NCBI GenBank assembly: GCA_964499705.1
Contig: CAZCME010000024.1
Location: forward strand, 56,677 to 76,676
DNA length: 20,000 bases
Reading direction: 5' to 3'
Source of the DNA: an uncultured bacterium
Lineage (GTDB): Bacteria > UBA8481
Shown: positions 5,295 through 19,772 of the stretch, one piece after another
Layout of the letters: each line of letters begins with the position of its first letter
How positions within the stretch are numbered: position 1 is the first letter of the stretch
Made by a program: the position numbers and the translations under genes
Notes under the pieces: model-generated
The model's database searches: none
What the model saw: the letters and a program-made list of their open reading frames with translations, nothing else
Told to the model about the DNA's origin: nothing

Positions 5295-5537
5295 ATGACA
5301 GAACCAGTATCAGCCGACACGAAACCCGTAGTCCTGGAACTCGAACCCGGAAATTACGCCTGGTGCGCCTGCGGCAAATCGGCCAACCAGCCATTCTGCG
5401 ACGGCTCACATCGAGGCTCGGGCATCACGCCGATCGCCTTCACCGTCACGGAGAAAAAGAAGGCCGCCTACTGCCTCTGCAAGCACTCCGCCAACAAACC
5501 GTTCTGCGACGGAACGCATAAGACGATCTCGAAATAG
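5295..5537 (+). CDS. CDGSH iron-sulfur domain protein with two CDGSH motifs (MiNT/CISD3-like)
   Basis: AGGAGG SD at 5284-5289; WCACGKSANQPFCDGSH and YCLCKHSANKPFCDGTH. Confidence 0.93.
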   Translation: MTEPVSADTKPVVLELEPGNYAWCACGKSANQPFCDGSHRGSGITPIAFTVTEKKKAAYCLCKHSANKPFCDGTHKTISK

Positions 5538-5620
5538 CTCCTCTCGGAGAAATGCGTCTTTCCTCAGTTTGAACTTTGAGCTTTTCCTTATCCTCAAGCC
5601 GGAAAGCGTTCACCTTGGCT

Positions 5621-5640
5621 AATGATAAGGAGTTATCATT
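5621..5640. promoter_or_regulatory. Fur/Zur-family operator-like palindrome, copy 1
   Basis: AATGATAA-GGAG-TTATCATT, a perfect 8-4-8 dyad just upstream of a -35 element; matches the copy at 13203-13222. Confidence 0.7.
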
Positions 5641-5644
5641 TTAT

Positions 5645-5672
5645 TTGACGATAGGATGATCGCGTGTACAAT
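5645..5672 (+). promoter_or_regulatory. sigma70-type promoter TTGACG-N16-TACAAT
   Basis: -35 at 5645-5650, -10 at 5667-5672, ATG at 5679 six nt later with no SD. Confidence 0.65.
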
Positions 5673-5678
5673 AGTCGC

Positions 5679-5972
5679 ATGCTCAGGCTCGGTCGATTCC
5701 TCCTTCTGCTCGCCATTTTCGTCGCGGCGATGCCGCTTATCCACACGCACGAGCTGGAGGCCGCACGCGGCGATCATGATGCGGAGCGCGACGCGCATGA
5801 GGGGAGCTGCCTTCTTACGGTTCTTCAAAAGTGCTGCGCTCAGCCTGACCTGCCCGCTCTTCTGGCGGACGATCCGGTCTTTCTCTCGTGGATGCCGGTT
5901 GCAGCATTCGCCGATGCCGAAGCCGCGGACATTCTCGATTTTTCCAGCCTCCGTTCTCCGCCTCTCGCCTGA
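5679..5972 (+). CDS. DUF2946/CruR-like His/Cys-containing leader protein ending in RSPP
   Basis: 97 aa: signal-like hydrophobic N-terminus, HTHE..DHD..AHEGSCLLTVLQKCC, C-terminal LRSPPLA*. Lies directly upstream of an outer-membrane metal-uptake gene. Confidence 0.7.
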   Translation: MLRLGRFLLLLAIFVAAMPLIHTHELEAARGDHDAERDAHEGSCLLTVLQKCCAQPDLPALLADDPVFLSWMPVAAFADAEAADILDFSSLRSPPLA

Positions 5973-6052
5973 TTCTCATCATCCACTCATTCCGCGTCTG
6001 ATTGATCCGGCGCTCTTTCGCCGGTTCCGACTTACAGGAGAATCATGCAAAC

Positions 6053-7432
6053 ATGCGTATCATCATCTTTTCCGCGCTCAGCGTTCTGCTCTGCGCGAAT
6101 CCGCTCCCGGTCCTCGCCTTGACGGACCAGGATGCGCGGGAACTCGTCGAAGAAGTGAGATCATTGAGGCGAGCGGTCGAGGACCAGAATCGCCGGATCG
6201 AAGAGCTGGAGGCGAAAGTCGCCGCAGGAGAACCGTCGGGAACGGAGGCGCCGACGCCCGAATCGCTCGGAGATGCCGGCCCGGCAGCCTCGACGCCATC
6301 CACGCCATCGGCGGGCAGCGTCGTCGGAGCGCGGCAGGCAGCTCAGCCGCAGATCGGTGTCGTCTTTGACGGCACTTACACGGCCGGAAAAAACGTCGCG
6401 GATGAAGCTCAGCTCCGCGCGATCGAGCTGAACGTCGGCGCTCCCATCGATCCCTATTTCGATCTCTTCGGCAAGCTCGTCTTCTCCGCGGATAACTCCG
6501 CCGCCTCCCCGCCGGAAGCGGCCGTCGAAAACGCCTACATCACCGCGCATCTTCCGCTCAATCTCGAGGCGCGCTTCGGGCTCGAATGGATTCCCTTCGG
6601 CGACGTCGGCACGCTCGACATCGACGAGCATCCTCAGGTGGACCAGCCACATGCCATCGCGCAATTCCTCGGTGGCGAGGGATTGAAAGCGATCGGCGGC
6701 CACGTCGAGTGGCTCGCTCCGTTCGCCGCAAATCCGACGCTCTCGCTCACCATCGGCGCGTACAACCGCGCGACGGGCGACGCGAACACGACTGCATCCG
6801 ACAAGGACGGCGACGGTGCGCCCGACGCGCCCGACATGTTTCTCGACGAGGGAGCGTTCAACGTCCGCGACCGCGAGCGGGGTCCGCTCTGGTTCGGCCG
6901 CGCCGCTTCATACTACGAATGGGACGCAGGCCACCATGCGATCCGCGTGGGCGGCTCGTATCTCTCGGACGAAAATGACGCAAGCGGAGCGACGCGAACG
7001 TCCGTCGCGGGGCTCGACGCGAAATACCGATGGCGGCCCGACGCCACCGGCCGCGGGATCACTTTCGCAGGAGAATATCTCCATCATCGCCGCCAGGAAT
7101 CGCCGACGACGCTCTTTCTCGCCAATGGGGGCAATGACCTGTCCAACGGAGGCGGCTACGTCTATGGACAGTATGATTTCGACAAGCGCTGGGGGCTCGG
7201 TTACCGCTACGACAACACCAACACGGCCTTCTCCGCCGCAAGCGAGATCGCGGCCCATTCCGTGTACGGCGAATATCGTCCGACGGAGTTTTCCCGCCTC
7301 CGCGCCCAGTATCGCCATGACGATCGCAACTTCGACGCCACGGCGAACGGCTTGAGGACCGACGACGACGCCGACGTTTTCCTGCTCCAGTTCACGCATT
7401 TCATCGGCTGGCATCCGGCTCACAAATTCTAG
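6053..7432 (+). CDS. Putative outer-membrane beta-barrel metal-uptake protein (porin-like or zinc-regulated receptor-like)
   Basis: Signal peptide, N-terminal coiled coil, amphipathic beta strands (ELNVGAPIDPYF, GGYVYGQYDF..RWGLGYRYD, PTEFSRLRAQY) and C-terminal IGWHPAHKF. First in-frame ATG after the AGGAG at 6036-6040. Confidence 0.75.
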   Translation: MRIIIFSALSVLLCANPLPVLALTDQDARELVEEVRSLRRAVEDQNRRIEELEAKVAAGEPSGTEAPTPESLGDAGPAASTPSTPSAGSVVGARQAAQPQIGVVFDGTYTAGKNVADEAQLRAIELNVGAPIDPYFDLFGKLVFSADNSAASPPEAAVENAYITAHLPLNLEARFGLEWIPFGDVGTLDIDEHPQVDQPHAIAQFLGGEGLKAIGGHVEWLAPFAANPTLSLTIGAYNRATGDANTTASDKDGDGAPDAPDMFLDEGAFNVRDRERGPLWFGRAASYYEWDAGHHAIRVGGSYLSDENDASGATRTSVAGLDAKYRWRPDATGRGITFAGEYLHHRRQESPTTLFLANGGNDLSNGGGYVYGQYDFDKRWGLGYRYDNTNTAFSAASEIAAHSVYGEYRPTEFSRLRAQYRHDDRNFDATANGLRTDDDADVFLLQFTHFIGWHPAHKF

Positions 7433-12739: not shown

Positions 12740-13156
12740 TCAAGCGCACTCCGCGCAGATGCCGAAGAGCGTCAGATCATGGCCTTCGCAGATGAATCCG
12801 CGGGGAGTCAAACGCTTCAGATTTTTCGGACAACCGTGGACCTCGTAGAGCCGGTCGCAGCGGCGGCAGAGGAAATGGTGGTGGTGGTGCTTGCCGGCCA
12901 GCTCGTATCGAGGAGGAGCTCCCGGCATGTCCACGATGGCGAGCCGGCCCTCAGCCGAGAGCATTTTCAGGTTACGGTAGACCGTGGCGATCCCGATTCC
13001 GCGGGACCGTCGTCGCGCGGCGGCCAGGATTTCCTGCGGGCCGATCGGTCGGTCGACGGCCTGCATGACCTGGAGAATCGCATTCCTCTGCCGCGTCCTG
13101 CGTTCCATCAGGACGGGCGCGGGAACCGGCCCGGCTTTTCGCGACTTTGCTTTCAC
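12740..13156 (-). CDS. Fur-family metal-responsive repressor (Zur-like by context)
   Basis: RRTRQRNAIL, GIGIATVYRNLK, HHHHHFLCRRC and C-terminal CAEC (two CxxC). Start is GTG 13156 or ATG 13108. Confidence 0.92.
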   Translation of the reverse strand: MKAKSRKAGPVPAPVLMERRTRQRNAILQVMQAVDRPIGPQEILAAARRRSRGIGIATVYRNLKMLSAEGRLAIVDMPGAPPRYELAGKHHHHHFLCRRCDRLYEVHGCPKNLKRLTPRGFICEGHDLTLFGICAECA

Positions 13157-13163
13157 AGGCGCG

Positions 13164-13192
13164 ATAATAATACCGCATTATCATCTGGACAA
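13164..13192 (-). promoter_or_regulatory. Putative promoter of the Fur-family gene, TTGTCC-N17-TATTAT
   Basis: On the minus strand, -35 at 13192-13187 and -10 at 13169-13164; GTG at 13156 follows after 7 nt. Confidence 0.5.
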
Positions 13193-13200
13193 CCGTTTTT

Positions 13201-13224
13201 GTAATGATAACATCTTCTCATTAC
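13201..13224. promoter_or_regulatory. Fur/Zur-family operator-like palindrome, copy 2
   Basis: GTAATGATAA-CATC-TTCTCATTAC (10-4-10, one mismatch) in the divergent fur/rcnA-like intergenic region, overlapping a candidate TGnTAACAT -10. Confidence 0.7.
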
Positions 13225-13277
13225 CTGAGAGGGCTCCCGGAAAACGCCGGCTCGACCGGCATGCTGAAAGGATCGTC

Positions 13278-14006
13278 GTGACGGATCAACCTGTATTCAC
13301 CTTTGCTTCGGCCTTCATCCTGGGGCTCCTGCACAGCATGGAACCGAGCCACGCCAAGGCCGTGCTGGCCTCGTATTTCCTCGATCACCGCCGCACCCTG
13401 GCGGAAGCCTTCTTCTTCGCCGTCGTCGTCACGGTCGCGCATACGCTCACCATCTATCTCCTCGCCGCTCTTCTTCTCGGCTCCGGGTCGCTCCTGCCGG
13501 ATAGCCTGCCCTTCGAGGAACATCACGCGGAAGCGGTGTCGGGATTCCTGATGGTGGCCCTGGGAGCCTGGATGCTTCGCGAAGAGAAGCGGGCCAACTT
13601 TCACAGGGATAACGCGCCCGATCATGATCATGCGTGCGGCCATCTCTTCCATCATCATGGATATCATCACCATCACGACGCCGCGCCCTCTTCCCTGCGC
13701 GGAATCTTCGTCATCGGTTTCTGCAGCGGTTCCATCCCCTGCATGACCGGCATAGCGGTCCTCCTTCAGGCCTGGGTCGCCGAAACACCCGCGCGCGGTT
13801 TCGGCCTGCTGGGCGTCTTCAGCCTCGGCCTCGGACTTGTCGTTCTCGTCATGAGCGTCGCGACGCAGCAGGCCGCGCAGTTCATGAAGCGATACTGGAA
13901 CGGAGCATCGCGCTGGACGAGGTACCTGCCTACAATAAGCGGTTCCCTGATCCTCCTCATGGGAATCTTCGTCCTCGTCCGGTCTCTTCTCGGCGAGGAA
14001 CATTGA
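13278..14006 (+). CDS. RcnA/NicO-like Ni/Co transporter with His-rich loop
   Basis: Start reassigned to GTG 13278 (AAAGGA upstream). LGLLHSMEPSHAKAVLASY resembles the RcnA HxLEPGH motif; TVAHT, His-rich DHDHACGHLFHHHGYHHHHD loop, GSIPC, FSLGLG. Confidence 0.85.
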   Translation: MTDQPVFTFASAFILGLLHSMEPSHAKAVLASYFLDHRRTLAEAFFFAVVVTVAHTLTIYLLAALLLGSGSLLPDSLPFEEHHAEAVSGFLMVALGAWMLREEKRANFHRDNAPDHDHACGHLFHHHGYHHHHDAAPSSLRGIFVIGFCSGSIPCMTGIAVLLQAWVAETPARGFGLLGVFSLGLGLVVLVMSVATQQAAQFMKRYWNGASRWTRYLPTISGSLILLMGIFVLVRSLLGEEH

Positions 14007-14010
14007 CCCC

Positions 14011-14688
14011 ATGCCGAACGTCCTCGAAATCGAAAGTCTTCGAAAATCTTTTCTTGGCCCGGATGGCAAACAATCGACTGTTCTCGATATAGCGTCCTTC
14101 CTCGTCGCGGACGGCGAGAGCGTCGCCATGCGGGGCGAGAGCGGGACCGGCAAAACCACGCTCCTGAATGTCATCGCCGGAATCCTGCGCGCCGACGATG
14201 GCCGCGTCACGGTGGCGGGAAGGGAAATGTCCGCCTTATCGGAACGAGCCCGCGACCGCGCGCGCGCGGATTCGATCGGATATATCTTTCAGACATTCCA
14301 TCTCCTTCAGGGGCTCACCGTTCTCGAGAACGTCACGCTCGGCATGGCTTTCGGAGGCAATTTCGAGAAGGATCGCGGGCGGGAACTCTTGAAGCGCATG
14401 GGAATCGACTCGCACGCGGCCCATCTTCCGCGAACCCTGTCCGTTGGTCAGCAGCAGCGTGTCGCGATCGCCCGCGCGCTGGCCAACAAGCCACGGCTCG
14501 TTCTCGCCGATGAGCCCACCGGCAACCTGGACACGGGTCGCGCCAGGGAGGCCGTTGCTCTCATCCGGGAAGTCTGCCGGGAAAACGGAGCGGCCCTCCT
14601 TCTCGTCAGCCACGATCCCTCCATTCTGGCGGGCTGCGACCGCATCATTCCGCTCGCCGAGATCAACCGCGCGGGTCAAGCTTCATGA
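14011..14688 (+). CDS. ABC ATP-binding protein, LolD/MacB type (ZrgB-like)
   Basis: GESGTGKTT, IGYIFQTFHLL, LSVGQQQRVAIARAL, LADEPTGNLD. Confidence 0.92.
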   Translation: MPNVLEIESLRKSFLGPDGKQSTVLDIASFLVADGESVAMRGESGTGKTTLLNVIAGILRADDGRVTVAGREMSALSERARDRARADSIGYIFQTFHLLQGLTVLENVTLGMAFGGNFEKDRGRELLKRMGIDSHAAHLPRTLSVGQQQRVAIARALANKPRLVLADEPTGNLDTGRAREAVALIREVCRENGAALLLVSHDPSILAGCDRIIPLAEINRAGQAS

Positions 14689-15956
14689 CGAACTCCACGT
14701 TTTCAGTTGTCCGGCTTCTGGTGCGCCGCAGCCTCGCGCAGCATGCCGTCGCCACAGGCATCACAATTCTCTCCGTCGCTCTCGCCTCCGGACTTCTTCT
14801 CTCAGTCTTCGCAATCCAGTCCCAGGCCTACTCCGCCTTCACGGGCGGGCCGATCGGATTCGACGCGATCCTCGGGGCGCGCGGAAGCCAGCTCCAACTC
14901 GTCCTCAATTGCATCTTCCACCTCGAAACCTCCCCCGGAAACCTGCCCTGGAAACTTTTTCGTTCCATCAAGGATGATCCCAGGGTTTCGCTCGCCATCC
15001 CCTACGCGGTCGGCGACAACTATTTTGGATTCCGGATCGTCGGAACGACCGACGAACTATTCACACGCTTCGAATACCAGGCCGGCTCGAAATTCCGGAC
15101 GCGTGAGGGTGGACATTTCTTCGACTCCTCCCGGAAGGAAGCCGTGATCGGCAGCTTTGTCGCTCAGCAGACCGGCCTCCGCGAAGGTTCGAAGTTCTCC
15201 CCGTATCACGGCGTCATCTTCGACGAGAAGATGCTGCACGAGGAGCAATACGTCGTGACAGGCGTCCTGGAACCTACGAATTCACCCGCCGACCGCGTCA
15301 TCTGGATCCCGATCGAGGGGATCTTCCGGATGGGCGGTCATGTGCTCCGCGGTTCCGGCGACGAGTTCAAGGCGGAAGCGGGAGTGGAGATCCCGGACGA
15401 GCATAAGGAAGTAAGCGCCGTCATGCTTAAACTCAAATCGCCCCAATCGGGATTCTCACTGGATCGTCTCATCAACAGGCAGGGCAAAGAGGCGACGCTC
15501 GCGTGGCCGATCGGACGGGTGATGGCGGAGCTCTTCCAGAAGATCGGCTGGGTGAACCGCGTTCTCGAACTCGTCGCTTATCTCGTCGTCGTCGTCGCCG
15601 CCGCGTCGATCCTCGCCAGCGTCTACAACACCTTGCGGGAACGCCGCCGCGAGTTCGCGATCCTTCGGGCGCTCGGAGCGCGCCGCCGCGTCATCTTCTC
15701 CGTCATAGTTTTCGAAGCCACGGCCATCGCCGCCGCCGGTTCTCTCCTCGGCGTCATCGTGTATGCCGGGATTCTGTCTATCGCCAGCAGCATCGTCCGC
15801 GCCGAGACGGGAGTCGTGCTGAACGTCTTTCAGTATCATCCTGTGCTCCTCTTCGGCCCGCTCGGCATGACCGCGCTCGGCGCCCTGGCCGGTCTTCTGC
15901 CCGCGTGGAGCGCCTATCGTACGGACGTCAGTGAAAATCTTGTTCCCCACTCCTGA
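14685..15956 (+). CDS. MacB/FtsX-family ABC permease (ZrgC-like)
   Basis: FDAILGARGSQLQLVLNCIFH, AIPYAVGDNY.GFRIVGT, periplasmic H-containing segment, ERRREFAILRALGA, GLLPAWSAYRTDV. Confidence 0.88.
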   Translation: MTNSTFSVVRLLVRRSLAQHAVATGITILSVALASGLLLSVFAIQSQAYSAFTGGPIGFDAILGARGSQLQLVLNCIFHLETSPGNLPWKLFRSIKDDPRVSLAIPYAVGDNYFGFRIVGTTDELFTRFEYQAGSKFRTREGGHFFDSSRKEAVIGSFVAQQTGLREGSKFSPYHGVIFDEKMLHEEQYVVTGVLEPTNSPADRVIWIPIEGIFRMGGHVLRGSGDEFKAEAGVEIPDEHKEVSAVMLKLKSPQSGFSLDRLINRQGKEATLAWPIGRVMAELFQKIGWVNRVLELVAYLVVVVAAASILASVYNTLRERRREFAILRALGARRRVIFSVIVFEATAIAAAGSLLGVIVYAGILSIASSIVRAETGVVLNVFQYHPVLLFGPLGMTALGALAGLLPAWSAYRTDVSENLVPHS

Positions 15957-15968
15957 GGAGGCCAGCAA

Positions 15969-16508
15969 ATGAAATACCCGGCGATGGTTCTTGTTCTCAG
16001 CGCAGTCTTCGCGGCGGCCGCGTGCGGTGGTAATTCTCGCGAGCCGGTTTCTCAGGCCGGGACGCAGACCGTCACGGTCGCCGTTCCGAAGCCGGAGACC
16101 GACACGGATCACGGTCATCACGCTCACTCCGCGCCGCACGGAGGAACGCTCGTCGTCCTCGGCGAGGAGATGGCTCATCTGGAGCTTCTGCTCGACACGT
16201 CCACCGGCCAGCTCGTCGCGTACGCGCTCGACGGCGAAGCGGAGAACGCCATCCGGTTGAAGCAGCCCGAGATCGAGATCCGGATCGCGGGCAATTCGGG
16301 CATGGCGGGCGACACCATCCGGCTGAAGGCCGTGGCGAATGTTCTGACCGGGGAGACTTCGGGCGATGCGTCGCAATTCGAAGGCTCCCTGAAATCGCTG
16401 TCGGGGAAATCGCGATTCGAAGGAATCGTTCATCGCGTCGAATTGATGGGCATTCTTCATGAAGACGTTCCTTTCCGATATCCTGAAGGCAATGAAGACC
16501 CCGAATAG
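15969..16508 (+). CDS. His-rich putative metal-binding lipoprotein
   Basis: GAGGAGG SD; lipobox-like FAAAAC; DHGHHAHSAPHGGTLVVLG..AHLELL. Confidence 0.75.
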   Translation: MKYPAMVLVLSAVFAAAACGGNSREPVSQAGTQTVTVAVPKPETDTDHGHHAHSAPHGGTLVVLGEEMAHLELLLDTSTGQLVAYALDGEAENAIRLKQPEIEIRIAGNSGMAGDTIRLKAVANVLTGETSGDASQFEGSLKSLSGKSRFEGIVHRVELMGILHEDVPFRYPEGNEDPE

Positions 16509-17262
16509 CGGCGCGGCGAGCTCGCGCAGCTGGAAAGCCGGAAAGAGCGGGCTGCGATTCGCCCTCATCCTCGGCGCATCCGGATTCTTCCTCGGCGGCG
16601 TGATCGCGCTGGGAGTCATGCCGATGATGCCTCGGAATTTCTTCGCGGAGGAGTGGATCAATCCATCCTCATCGGACGGATCGCGAATCGTCGGTGAAGC
16701 ATTGAGCTCCGCGCCCGGATCATCGCCGCCCCCGGCCAGAAAAGATACTTCGTCCACGCGGGCGGGCATCATGCCGATGGTGGCTCCCGTATCGCTGCGG
16801 AAATCCACGGCGGACACGAAGCCTTCCTTATCTTCATCCGTGGACACGAGGACCGCGCCGGGACCCGGCATCGGGCCTTCCGAACCGGGAGGATATCGCC
16901 GCATCGGTTTCGACCTCCTTTCCTCCTTCGATTTCGACAAGGATGGGATCCCGCCTTCCATCAGGGATCTCGACGGCTTCAGGATCCGAATTCAGGGATA
17001 CATGCTGCCGATCGAGTTCGGAGTGAAGGGCCCAAAAAGTTTCCTCCTTCTTGTCGACCAGACCGGATGTTGTTACGGCGTGCCTCCCGAATTGAACGCC
17101 TGCGCCTATGTCGTCGCGAAGGGCGGCGGCGAGACGGAATATATTCCGGACGAGCCGATTTACGTCTATGGTCGACTTGTCGTGAAAGAATCCTACGAGG
17201 ATGGAACGCTCGCGTACATCTACAAGATCACATGCGACAAGATAGCCCGCGTCTACCCCTGA
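16492..17262 (+). CDS. DUF3299-family protein (ZrgD-like), copy 2, with TM anchor and Ser/Pro-rich linker
   Basis: LDGFRIRIQGYMLPI, FLLLVDQTGCCYGVPPELN, PIYVYGRL, YIYKI. Start is ATG 16492 or 16459. Confidence 0.78.
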   Translation: MKTPNSGAASSRSWKAGKSGLRFALILGASGFFLGGVIALGVMPMMPRNFFAEEWINPSSSDGSRIVGEALSSAPGSSPPPARKDTSSTRAGIMPMVAPVSLRKSTADTKPSLSSSVDTRTAPGPGIGPSEPGGYRRIGFDLLSSFDFDKDGIPPSIRDLDGFRIRIQGYMLPIEFGVKGPKSFLLLVDQTGCCYGVPPELNACAYVVAKGGGETEYIPDEPIYVYGRLVVKESYEDGTLAYIYKITCDKIARVYP

Positions 17263-18064: not shown

Positions 18065-19519
18065 ATGACGAACGAACAGCAGTGGCATCTCCACACGCAG
18101 GACGGTCCCCAGGGTCCCTACACGACGACACAGCTCAAGCAATGGCTGGCGGCGGGCCAGATCACACCGCAGTGGTTTGTCTGGCAGGACGGATTCCCCG
18201 AATGGAAACCCATCTCCGATATCCCGGCATTGTCGGCACCCGCCGCTCCTGTCGCTCCGCCTCCGCCGCCGGCCGCTCCTCTGAAACCGGCGCCACCGGC
18301 TGCGAAGGAGAAAGAAGCCGAGCCGCTGGTGCCCGCGCCCGATCCATCGGCCGCCGGGACAAAGGCTCCTGTAAAGGCGAAAAAAGGCATGGGTCGGCGG
18401 GCCGTCAACATCCTCGGTATCGTTCTTGTCATCGCCGGAATCGCCGCAGGCGCGACCAAGGTCTTTGCCCCGGACATATTCGACACGCTGATCGGAACGC
18501 CGCCACCGCCGCCCGTCGTCGCGCCGCCCCGAAAGCCCGTCCCGCCGCCGCCGCCGCCGCTCGACGAATCCGCCCTGCCGGAGGAAATCCAGGCGGAGAA
18601 CGTCGTCATCGTCATCATCGACGGCCCGCGGTATTCCGAAACGTGGGGAGATACCGCGCATCGATATATTCCTCATATCTATAATGACCTTGCTCCCCAT
18701 GGAGTCGTCATCACGAATTTCCGGAACGAAGGCGTCACCAAGACCGTTCCCGGACATGTGGCACTCTGGACCGGCCACTACGAGAAGATCGGCAACGACG
18801 AGAACGTGACTCCCACGCACCCCGGCATGGGGCAGGTCATCATCAAGGAGAAGGACATGGCGCCCGATTCCGTCTGGATCATCGCCTCCAAGGACAAGAT
18901 CGATGTCCTCGCCACGAATTCCGATCCGGCCTGGAAGAACGCCGTGCCGCCGAAGACCCACACGGGCCGCAACGGCACAGGTAACGGCATCGCCGACGAT
19001 TCCGCGACCTATGAGAAGGCGATCGAGATCCTGAAACGAGATCGACCGCGCCTAGCGTTCATCCAGTTCAAGGAGCCCGACATCTCGGGCCACTCCAAGA
19101 AATGGGACTGGTATCTCGCCGGCTTGAAAGCCAGCGACGAGTTCGCGTGGAAGATCTGGCAATTCCTGGAATCCGACTCCCACTACGCGGGGCGCACGGC
19201 CTTCTTCATCACGAACGACCACGGACGCCATCTCGACGACGTCCTGGATAGCTTCGTGAGCCACGGCGACGACTGCGAAGGCTGCCGCCGCATCATCCTT
19301 TACGCCTCAGGCCCGGACTTCCAGAAAGGTGTCGTCGTGGAGAACAAGTGGGAACAGATCGACCTCGCCGTGACCGCGGCGCGCCTGCTGGGCGTCCGCC
19401 TCCCCGGCAGCACCGGCAAGATCATCGCCGATCTCTTCGCCGCCGCCACCGGCGCAAGCGACGCAGCGGAGACCGACACCGAACCTCAAGCGGACACCAA
19501 GCCCCAGAAAGCAAAGTAG
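18065..19519 (+). CDS. Membrane-anchored alkaline-phosphatase-superfamily protein with N-terminal GYF_2 (DUF4339) domain
   Basis: WHL...PQGPY..QL..W...GQITPQWFVWQDGFPEWKPI (GYF_2), Pro-rich linker, TM helix, then VIVIIDGPR, TVPGH, EPDISGH, TNDHGR, QIDLAVT. Start is 18065 or 18041. Confidence 0.8.
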   Translation: MTNEQQWHLHTQDGPQGPYTTTQLKQWLAAGQITPQWFVWQDGFPEWKPISDIPALSAPAAPVAPPPPPAAPLKPAPPAAKEKEAEPLVPAPDPSAAGTKAPVKAKKGMGRRAVNILGIVLVIAGIAAGATKVFAPDIFDTLIGTPPPPPVVAPPRKPVPPPPPPLDESALPEEIQAENVVIVIIDGPRYSETWGDTAHRYIPHIYNDLAPHGVVITNFRNEGVTKTVPGHVALWTGHYEKIGNDENVTPTHPGMGQVIIKEKDMAPDSVWIIASKDKIDVLATNSDPAWKNAVPPKTHTGRNGTGNGIADDSATYEKAIEILKRDRPRLAFIQFKEPDISGHSKKWDWYLAGLKASDEFAWKIWQFLESDSHYAGRTAFFITNDHGRHLDDVLDSFVSHGDDCEGCRRIILYASGPDFQKGVVVENKWEQIDLAVTAARLLGVRLPGSTGKIIADLFAAATGASDAAETDTEPQADTKPQKAK

Positions 19520-19550
19520 CTCTCCCATCCAGAAGCAAAAGCCTTCCCGC

Positions 19551-19579
19551 TTGCCTATTGCTCCACGCGTTGCTATCAT
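19551..19579 (+). promoter_or_regulatory. tRNA promoter TTGCCT-N17-TATCAT (extended -10)
   Basis: -35 at 19551-19556, TG at 19571-19572, -10 at 19574-19579, 15 nt before the tRNA. Confidence 0.6.
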
Positions 19580-19594
19580 TTTTCGCATCCGCAC

Positions 19595-19669
19595 GGCGGT
19601 ATCGTCTAACGGTCAGGACAGCGGCTTCTCAAGCCGTCAATCGGGGTTCGATTCCCCGTACCGCTACCA
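19595..19669 (+). tRNA. tRNA-Glu(CTC)
   Basis: Acceptor stem GGCGGTA/TACCGCT, anticodon arm GCGGC-TTCTCAA-GCCGT (CTC at 19628-19630), T arm CGGGG-TTCGATT-CCCCG, encoded CCA. Confidence 0.95.
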
Positions 19670-19772
19670 GTTTTCGTCGACGATAGCGATCTCACTACAG
19701 CACTTCACGCTCCCCTCCTCCACCAAAGGAAAACATACCGACGGGCCGGCGAGGGATTACTCCGGAGGTCGA

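Follow-up and report, generated by a model that had tools for sequence, protein, structure and literature searches.

A candidate ribosome-arrest leader ahead of a porin-like barrel and a ZnuABC-type importer in an uncultured bacterium

The leader gene and the genes it precedes

The window analysed here is a 20,000-nt stretch of DNA from an uncultured bacterium of the GTDB lineage UBA8481 (GenBank assembly GCA_964499705.1, contig CAZCME010000024.1, positions 56,677 to 76,676 of the forward strand). The subject is a short open reading frame (ORF) of 97 codons, P0001, which lies ahead of a gene for an outer-membrane porin-like barrel (P0002) and of genes for a ZnuABC-type metal importer (P0003–P0005) (Table 1). 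Upstream of it are ATP synthase genes and a gene for a CDGSH protein. An earlier reading of this DNA, made from the letters alone (below, the sequence-only reading), had taken P0001 for a metal-sensing ribosome-arrest leader whose stop region pairs with the barrel gene's Shine-Dalgarno (SD) sequence. Every coordinate that it gave for the 97-aa ORF, the RSPP codons, the stop/SD complementarity and the inner hairpin was correct; the observation is confirmed, and the sequence evidence supports the interpretation.

Table 1. Features of the 20,000-nt window, in order of position
Feature	Position	Strand	Remarks
Perfect palindrome AATGATAA-ggag-TTATCATT, candidate Fur-family operator	5621..5640	.	Ends 4 nt before the −35; predicted binding site
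Sigma-70-like promoter TTGACG-16-TACAAT	5645..5672	+	10/12 matches; 2 sites found vs 0.2 expected; −10 ends 6 nt before ATG 5679
Leader gene, P0001, 97 aa	5679..5972	+	ATG 5679, TGA 5970–5972; hydrophobic N-terminus, H-T-H-E, C-L-L-T, C-terminal R-S-P-P-L-A
H22-T23-H24-E25 codons, candidate metal ligand set	5742..5753	+	H22 invariant, H24 nearly so, in 25 sequences; putative metal binding
C44-L-L-T47 codons	5808..5819	+	Aligned with CxxC of related leaders; second Cys lost in the window's clade
R-S-P-P codons CGT TCT CCG CCT, predicted arrest site	5952..5963	+	P site 5958–5960, A site 5961–5963, by analogy with the reported CruR toeprint (PMC12992588)
Alternative anti-SD GUUCUCC within the RSPP codons	5953..5959	+	Pairs with 6037–6043, p ~0.07–0.09; position where most relatives carry the anti-SD
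Main anti-SD strand GCC UGA UUCUC, over the leader stop codon	5967..5977	+	Pairs with 6038–6048; p = 0.76–0.88 for the 8 central pairs
Spacer, 80 nt, C-rich/G-poor, possible Rho loading region	5973..6052	+	C 0.33, G 0.19; Rho use suggested by the reported CruR model (PMC9426467)
Inner hairpin CCGGCG-CTCTTT-CGCCGG	6007..6024	+	Inside the long-range helix; CCGGCG 6007–6012, CGCCGG 6019–6024
SD AGGAG (6036–6040) and sequestered strand (6038–6048)	6036..6048	+	Barrel ATG 6053
Outer-membrane porin-like barrel, P0002, 459 aa	6053..7432	+	Signal peptide, N-terminal helix 25–57; AlphaFold2 (AF2) and Foldseek
ZnuA-type periplasmic metal-binding protein, P0003	7442..8398	+	PF01297, E = 3.6e-47
ATP-binding cassette (ABC) transporter ATPase, P0004	8403..9164	+	PF00005; best NCBIfam AztA, 180 bits, cut-off 220
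ABC-3 family permease, P0005	9161..9979	+	PF00950, E = 2e-44; AztB-like, below cut-off
Fur-family regulator gene, candidate repressor of both palindrome promoters	12740..13156	-	PF01475, E = 5.8e-21
Second palindrome copy AATGATAA-catc-TTCTCATT	13203..13222	.	Between the Fur-family gene and the NicO-like/MacB-type ABC/DUF3299 gene set

As read from the sequence, P0001 starts with M-L-R-L-G-R and 15 hydrophobic residues, an arrangement kept in the alignments, carries H22 and H24 (in H22-T23-H24-E25), H33, H40, C44, C52 and C53, and ends L-R92-S-P-P95-L-A. A profile search of 1.84 billion representatives together with a word-indexed search yielded eight relatives of 91–108 aa; the word-indexed search using P0001 alone matched nothing except P0001 itself, and a leader alignment (A6) found no match in the metagenome contigs. 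In the nine-sequence alignment of this clade, L9, A12, A16, P19, H22, H24, C44, L46, L49, K51, S90, R92, P94 and P95 are invariant, and all nine sequences terminate in SPR-x-PP plus two to four residues, x being Ala in seven, Gly in one and Ser in one, the window. The sole leader relative among 61 genomes searched, that of G003, a member of the same family, is 40% identical, has RAPPLA at its end and precedes a gene homologous to that of the 459-aa barrel. The single match of a narrower leader alignment (A5) in genome contigs, L006, was rejected as a chance 16-residue match opposite a real gene, and G010 gave a weak match to P0001 (E = 0.0016) with internal stops.

In a broader alignment of 25 leaders (A8), H22, C44, P94 and P95 are invariant and H24 and R92 nearly so, and the H-x-H that directly follows the hydrophobic segment matches the Cys in conservation. 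The His and Cys residues listed by the sequence-only reading are thus all present, but only H22, H24 and C44 are conserved; the CC pair (C52-C53) and the remaining His are not. Its suggestion that C-L-L-T stands in place of CxxC fits the alignment, which puts C44 on the first Cys of the CxxC kept in 15 of the 25 leaders; in the ten sequences of the window's clade the second position is Thr, Ser, Ala or Gly, never Cys. The distance from Cys to Arg is 48 residues in P0001, with 44 residues between T47 and R92, and 46–49 (42–45 intervening) in 22 of the 25 leaders, the script having taken the second Cys in the remaining three. In a set of over 40 diverged leaders, nothing at the C-terminus is invariant except R/H-x-P-P, one to seven residues before the stop, and the middle of the protein is unconserved. 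Judged at this level, the ORF at 5679–5972 is a real, conserved gene. Because the −10 element ends 6 nt before the ATG and no SD-like sequence was found ahead of ATG 5679, the leader mRNA is probably leaderless or nearly so; a −35/−10 pair ending 6–8 nt before the start, with no SD there, is present at 4 of 18 representative loci (the window, L050, L052 and L068), against a background of 0.0038 per position.

No Pfam family is assigned to P0002 (best match BBP2, E = 0.045), and the PF07396 (Porin O/P) model does not match it. Its AlphaFold2 model, built from 17 sequences, has a mean predicted local distance difference test (pLDDT) score of 69.4, 16 strands and a helix at residues 25–57. Foldseek retrieved porins for this model, at TM 0.51 for OprO and OprP and at a similar TM for general porins, with chitoporin and MOMP among them, and no plug domain; the structure neighbours of the barrel in the Atlas include Porin_O_P-like clusters, a lead only. 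Since Foldseek finds porins and no plug domain is seen, P0002, as modelled, is a porin-like channel and not a TonB-dependent receptor. The C-terminus of the barrel (window 7396–7432, alignment A9) has a conserved G-x-H-x-x-H-x-F, of which G452 and H454 never vary and H457 and F459 hardly do, and D106, E125, D133, D137, E159, E341, E407 and E412 are invariant acidic residues of the barrel family; these conserved His and acidic residues may form a cation or metal site.

The Zn/Mn-type ABC context described by the sequence-only reading is conserved and of the three-His kind. PF01297 (ZnuA) and an ABC-3 permease follow the barrel in 7/7 metagenome loci scanned with Pfam, and a home-made ZnuA profile detected a ZnuA-like gene directly after the barrel at 24 of 28 genome loci; of the four without such a match, one stops at the barrel. 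Three His, at the DPH, PH and (Y/F)H positions, are kept in 32/32 operon-linked ZnuA homologues, and among solved structures P0003 is closest to the zinc-specific ZnuA of Synechocystis, with which the three His positions match in the alignment; we take them to be its zinc ligands. The features of a cluster A-I importer, namely PF01297, PF00950 and PF00005 in one operon and three His at the metal site, are found together here, and the best NCBIfam equivalogs of P0003–P0005 are AztC, AztA and AztB, all under their cut-offs. From this operon context, the metal is probably zinc.

Relation to known arrest leaders and spread of the module

The hallmarks reported for DUF2946 (PF11162) proteins are a CXXC, a RAPP three residues from the end, 45 ± 1-2 residues between the two, an export signal and a first position in metal operons (PMC9426467). 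P0001 has the RAPP-type C-terminus in the variant form RSPP, the Cys–Arg spacing (44 residues as compared with that reported value, as expected from the DUF2946-type leader of the earlier claim) and the place of first gene in a metal operon, followed by an 80-nt spacer; it lacks the CXXC and the model score. The gathering score of the DUF2946 model is 23.7 bits. P0001 itself has no match to the model even at E ≤ 10 and none in NCBIfam either, and this is a point against membership. A six-frame PF11162 search of the genome misses the leader and returns only noise, at C3 and at window 19489–19719, and PF11162 had no match at E ≤ 1e-5 in the genomes of 301 relatives. The link was made through the relatives: 9 of the 25 leaders of alignment A8 and 4 of 21 genome leaders match at E ≤ 1, mostly over a stretch that begins at the Cys motif and reaches the model's final residue, and one leader in 46 is over the cut-off, the clade member P0015 with 24.1 bits (P0008 reaches 22.5). 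Since relatives match weakly, C44 aligns with the CxxC and the Cys–Arg spacing agrees, the best reading of the sequences is that P0001 is a member of a divergent DUF2946 (CruR/CutF) branch that the Pfam model largely misses. Three members of the window's clade, P0012, P0014 and P0015, have weak DUF6153 scores below the cut-off (best E = 6.5e-4), and DUF6153 may be another set of proline-motif leaders.

According to the published descriptions, CruR (Bp2923 of Bordetella pertussis, upstream of bfrG; PMC9426467) and P0001 are alike in being encoded by the small first gene of a metal-uptake operon and having an export-like N-terminus, an R-x-P-P two or three residues before the stop and a Cys motif about 45 residues upstream of it, followed by a long spacer and an outer-membrane uptake gene, with a proposed logic in which the stall means ON and metal releases it. 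Unlike CruR, P0001 has RSPP instead of RAPP, C-L-L-T instead of CxxC and, in addition, the conserved H-x-H. Downstream of CruR are a TonB-dependent transporter and a PepSY_TM protein, whereas the porin-like barrel and ZnuABC follow P0001, and the likely metal is zinc for P0001 and copper for CruR. The leader has an SD-sequestering helix, whereas CruR reportedly acts through Rho (PMC9426467); frequent codons encode the RAPP of CruR, and biased codons are used in the leader and its relatives. In CutF of Rhodobacter capsulatus, a DUF2946-like protein encoded upstream of cutO, the nascent chain is likewise reported to be exported and the metal sensed outside the cytoplasm, and a C-terminal Pro motif arrests the ribosome, which opens a stem-loop in which the following ribosome-binding site is hidden (PMC9973294; 10.1101/2025.02.05.636593). 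Peculiar to CutF, as described there, are control of a detoxifying oxidase, induction of the stall by copper, a PPP motif that needs elongation factor P (EF-P), and a CxxxC; the opposite sign is expected for P0001, because its operon is for uptake.

SecM, ApdA, ApdP and ApcA share with P0001 the plan of a small exported protein whose C-terminal end holds an R-A/G-P-P-type arrest core, and in secM-secA, as proposed for the leader, arrest controls the downstream gene via an SD-sequestering structure. These four, which like MifM and VemP are Sec/YidC monitoring substrates, precede sec or yidC genes, report export activity and have no His/Cys motif at a fixed distance; downstream of P0001 there is no sec or yidC gene but the porin-like barrel and ZnuABC-type genes. 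Two leaders of Streptomyces lividans, SLIV_16130 and SLIV_18480, are described as experimentally arresting RAPP/RGPP leaders with conserved Cys/His and as proposed metal sensors (PMC12992588); they are actinobacterial and predicted to be copper-linked, no porin or ZnuABC is reported downstream, and their tie to P0001 consists of the weak DUF6153 matches. In the same paper, a toeprint of CruR assigns the Pro codon pair to the P and A sites, arrest of ApdA and ApdP partly tolerates an Ala-to-Ser change (giving RSPP), and RxPP is described as avoided in proteomes, with RSPP among the most avoided tetrapeptides (PMC12992588). A hint of non-copper use of the family is provided by a Caulobacter DUF2946 gene, which precedes the czrCBA efflux genes in a published Zur-regulon gene table (PMC4176598).

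Searching metagenome contigs with the barrel gave 64 loci, many of them close kin, and upstream of 46 of these barrels stands an intact, same-strand small ORF ending in [R/H][A/G/S]PP plus one to four residues; the other loci have a frameshifted leader (5), are short of upstream DNA (10) or have the DNA yet no leader (3). With the window and G003 included, the metagenome leaders collapse to 18 clusters at <80% identity, of which 12 carry RAPP, 3 RGPP, 2 RSPP (one of them L039) and 1 HAPP. A more independent sample was obtained by a barrel profile search of 301 genomes, nearly all from different families. A barrel homologue was present in 68, and the best 30 of these were taken, which left 28 loci once those of the window's genome and of G003 were removed. 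An R[AGS]PP leader was found at 20 of the 28 (13 RAPP, 1 RGPP and 6 RSPP); of the remaining eight, one has a degenerate KTSPP, one lacks upstream DNA and six have no leader. The motif on which the sequence-only reading relied is conserved both as SPR[A/G/S]PP in the nine-sequence clade and as [R/H][AGS]PP leaders at these metagenome and genome loci. Since RSPP occurs in 6 of the 20 genome leaders, it is, as far as these sequences tell, a recurrent natural form in the leader family and not a decayed motif.

Several loci deviate from the common arrangement. Frameshifts hit leaders and barrels in the same five metagenome contigs (L040, L048, L060, L065 and L066), and because both genes are broken within the same contigs, sequencing error is likelier than decay. 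In L083 (926–1195) a variant leader before a barrel homologue ends K-T-S-P-P-H-S-A and lacks the Arg, and the leaders of L094 (1073–1393) and L092 (2885–3184), also upstream of barrel homologues, have RAPP but no Cys motif. Three low-G+C loci have a DsrE-like ORF of about 112–115 aa between leader and barrel (L024 2700–2930, L026 2151–2489 and L030 2599–2937), with whose SD the leader anti-SD pairs in L026 and L030, not in L024. A gene for a CobW/COG0523-type GTPase (L024 1116–2384) overlaps the leader start codon by 4 nt, so that the leader is not the first gene in L024.

Pairing of the leader tail with the SD and models of control

In the window, TGATTCTC (5970–5977), at the leader stop codon, is the exact reverse complement of GAGAATCA (6038–6045) at the SD of the barrel gene, and the pairing continues, with one mismatch, to C5968-G6047 and G5967-C6048 and encloses the hairpin 6007–6012/6019–6024. 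This helix is part of the minimum-energy structure of 5940–6070, and the partition function pairs 6038–6045 with 5970–5977 at p = 0.76–0.88; the total energy, considered below, is not unusual. The duplex of tail and SD has −14.4 kcal/mol, compared with −9.1 ± 1.9 for shuffled tails, a value equalled by 1% of 300 shuffles, and among 18 tails that of the window ranks first for the window's SD. By itself, the helix is real and modestly better than chance. It gains weight because tail/SD pairing recurs in related loci, where its sequence has changed. Perfect 11–13-bp duplexes of the Ala/Ser-Pro-Pro and following codons with the next SD are present in L011, L015, L030, L039 and L042, with flanks that vary by locus, and in G003 a GACCTC at the stop and a GAGGTC at the SD pair with each other and enclose another G+C hairpin. 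Where the window has its inner hairpin, L002 carries a different one of 8 bp, also of G+C. A role of the inner hairpin as an intrinsic terminator was rejected, there being no T-run after it and no terminator-like site on the + strand in 5400–6200.

Over the 18 metagenome clusters the summed cognate tail/SD duplexes amount to −322.9 as against −262.2 ± 11.6 for permuted pairs, and over 18 genome loci to −234.0 as against −193.7 ± 8.9, each sum being reached in 0/20000 permutations; these tests are partly confounded, since a cognate tail and SD share G+C content, which lessens their force, and composition-preserving shuffles are the fairer control. With such shuffles, 12 of the 18 clusters and 5 of the 18 genome loci reach 0.05. 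The trend towards tail/SD complementarity is real, though it does not hold everywhere. Codon choice at the arrest site leans towards GCA CCU: the first arrest Pro is CCT in 12 of 18 leaders, compared with 4.7 expected from barrel-gene usage, and the arrest Ala is GCA in 9 of 13, compared with 2.8 expected (P ~1e-4 for each). G003 has GCA CCT CCT, codons used 1/42 and 0/33 times in its barrel gene. The resulting GCACCUCC resembles the 16S anti-SD, and its natural partner is an mRNA SD. The anti-SD of most relatives is found about −2 to +13 from the P-site codon, chiefly in the Ala-Pro-Pro codons at −2 to +9, and the main anti-SD of the window's clade at +10 to +20.

Taking these results together, we consider it reasonably probable that P0001 is a divergent arrest leader of the CruR/CutF type at the head of a five-gene metal-uptake operon, likely zinc-responsive, a reading in which we infer the stalling, the ligand, the sensing site and the direction of control. 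The mRNA would start at or beside the ATG, and the hydrophobic N-terminus would bring the nascent chain to the membrane. The ribosome would then stall at R-S-P-P, its P and A sites occupied by the two Pro codons. At the stall, C44 would be about 50 and H22/H24 about 70 residues from the peptidyl-transferase centre, which would place them outside the exit tunnel. The stalled ribosome would occupy or destabilise the anti-SD strands (5967–5977 and 5953–5959) and cover the entry of the C-rich spacer, so that the barrel would be translated and transcription would run on into the znu genes. Plentiful metal, likeliest zinc, would be bound by the nascent His/Cys motif, and folding or a pulling force would end the arrest; the ribosome would terminate, the helix would re-form and expression would drop. 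An uptake operon would be expected to stall at scarce metal and to be released upon metal binding, as in CruR, and in most relatives stalling must free the SD because the anti-SD lies inside the stalled ribosome.

Several findings weigh against this reading. RSPP arrests less strongly than RAPP or RGPP in the contexts tested in PMC12992588, and the second Cys of CxxC, which is required for copper control in CruR, is absent from the leader. The DUF2946 model leaves P0001 itself unmatched, the Fur-family regulator encoded in the window is not placed as Zur, Fur or PerR by NCBIfam, and the barrel occurs without a detectable leader at 6/28 genome loci and 3/64 metagenome loci. The energy of 5940–6070 is ordinary (z = −1.14), 26 of 200 shuffles folding equally well, and tail/SD pairing is no better than in shuffles in 13 of the 18 genome loci and 6 of the 18 clusters, including the nearest relatives L002 (0.097) and L007 (0.11). 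The spacing between SD and ATG 6053 is, at 12 nt, long. Moreover, with the P site at 5958 the main anti-SD begins at +13, and masking the mRNA to 5970 keeps the helix, so that in this model the stalled ribosome in the window may leave the SD unfreed. Masking to 5973 or 5976 abolishes the helix, for which a weak 4-bp pairing of GGAG with 6026–6029 substitutes. A ribosome protects mRNA to about +15 and unwinds it to about +11. The earlier claim that a ribosome on the Pro codons would cover about 5970–5977 therefore holds for the 5′ part only, and whether the main helix would open is uncertain because the outcome hinges on the assumed edge of the footprint; in the masking model, a ribosome that has reached the stop codon opens it regardless. 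An out-of-frame ATG at 6045, 4 nt past the AGGAG, opens a 26-codon ORF (6045–6125) that overlaps the barrel start and could compete for, or report on, access to the SD.

The same arrest leader might instead act mainly on transcription in the manner of CruR, the stalled ribosome shielding the C-rich spacer from Rho and the SD helix being secondary or incidental. This appears unlikely, though it is the most serious of the alternatives: CruR is reported to work via Rho (PMC9426467), the spacer is C-rich and G-poor in three high-G+C relatives (C/G 0.33/0.19 in the window, and 0.43/0.24 and 0.42/0.18 in the two nearest loci, L002 and L007), many relatives have spacers of 100–220 nt and a tail/SD pairing no better than shuffles, and a leaderless start would keep the first ribosome near the polymerase. 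Prediction of Rho sites by composition alone is, however, weak, the tail/SD complementarity in two sets of loci and the anti-SD-like codon bias would be left unexplained, and the Rho and SD-switch outputs can coexist. The footprint problem set out above bears on a reversed, CutF-like logic, in which metal would strengthen a stall upstream of the helix and keep the SD shut, and without metal a terminating ribosome would melt 5970–5977 and initiation would be coupled. The anti-SD of the window's clade, at +10 to +20, would indeed be spared by a ribosome covering to +12 and removed by one at the stop, and copper induces stalling in CutF as reported (10.1101/2025.02.05.636593). We nevertheless judge such a reversal quite improbable, since in most relatives the anti-SD lies inside the stalled ribosome, where stalling has to free the SD; one family could have switched sign, but that is the less economical assumption, a terminating ribosome stays only briefly, and an 80-nt spacer speaks against simple coupling.

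That P0001 is no regulator at all, and is instead a stable exported metal chaperone, a porin accessory or a metal-insensitive secretion monitor beside an incidental helix, is very hard to credit. CutF was initially taken for a chaperone, according to PMC9426467, and P0001 has an export-like N-terminus and His/Cys and is named by no family model. On the other side, R/H-x-P-P is the sole invariant C-terminal feature of proteins whose middle is unconserved, RxPP being a motif reported to be avoided in proteomes (PMC12992588); the fixed Cys-to-Arg spacing fits a nascent chain measured against the ribosome and not a folded protein, and sec or yidC genes are absent downstream.

Neither arrest leaders of the DUF2946 type nor stem-loops that shield an SD are new. 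Post-transcriptional sensing of a transition metal by a nascent peptide is known solely for copper (CruR and CutF), and the authors of the CruR study state that riboswitches for copper or zinc are not known (PMC9426467). If the leader is zinc-responsive, the principle reaches a second metal and another uptake route, a porin and ZnuABC in place of a TonB-dependent transporter. A literature search, which left outside it the supplementary gene tables of PMC9426467 and PMC12992588, where such leaders may be listed, found no report of an arrest leader tied to a porin and ZnuABC or to zinc, of a branch of such leaders almost wholly below the DUF2946 cut-off that accompanies this barrel, of loss of the second Cys, of RSPP as a common natural core or of arrest codons that double as anti-SD. 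Zinc, porins and ABC transporters are unmentioned in the main text of PMC12992588, and zinc and ZnuA in PMC9973294. A more far-reaching proposal, which we advance tentatively and regard as more doubtful than the arrest leader itself, is that P0001 is the first zinc-sensing nascent peptide and stands for a widespread leader class coupling external zinc to porin-ZnuABC uptake. In such leaders zinc would be bound outside the ribosome by the H-x-H and Cys, which would draw the chain out of the R-x-P-P arrest, the arrest codons GCA CCU CC would double as anti-SD in many members, and the window's clade would be derived, its second Cys lost and its anti-SD moved to the stop codon. As 45 of the 46 scanned leaders are below the Pfam cut-off, many genomes may hold an unannotated regulatory gene before a zinc importer. 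The biased arrest codons would amount to a simple design rule for stall-coupled SD switches, and the natural variants (RAPP, RGPP, RSPP and HAPP; CxxC and CxxT) offer ready comparisons of arrest strength and metal selectivity.

Transcriptional control and other genes of the window

The palindrome ahead of the leader promoter has two copies in the 4.67-Mb genome (≤2 mismatches), both in the window; the reversed-pattern control gave 0. The sequences suggest one metal regulon of two operons, to one of which the leader adds post-transcriptional control, and a Fur-family repressor site upstream of the leader probably adds transcriptional control. A divergent promoter with the second palindrome serves the Fur-family gene and a NicO-like/MacB-type ABC/FtsX/DUF3299 set (13260–17262), and a further AT-rich inverted repeat lies at about 13160–13185. 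Elsewhere in the window, 725–2392 on the + strand encodes a 555-aa protein in which a LexA-type DNA-binding domain is joined to a Y-family (impB/mucB/samB) polymerase core, an unusual fusion.

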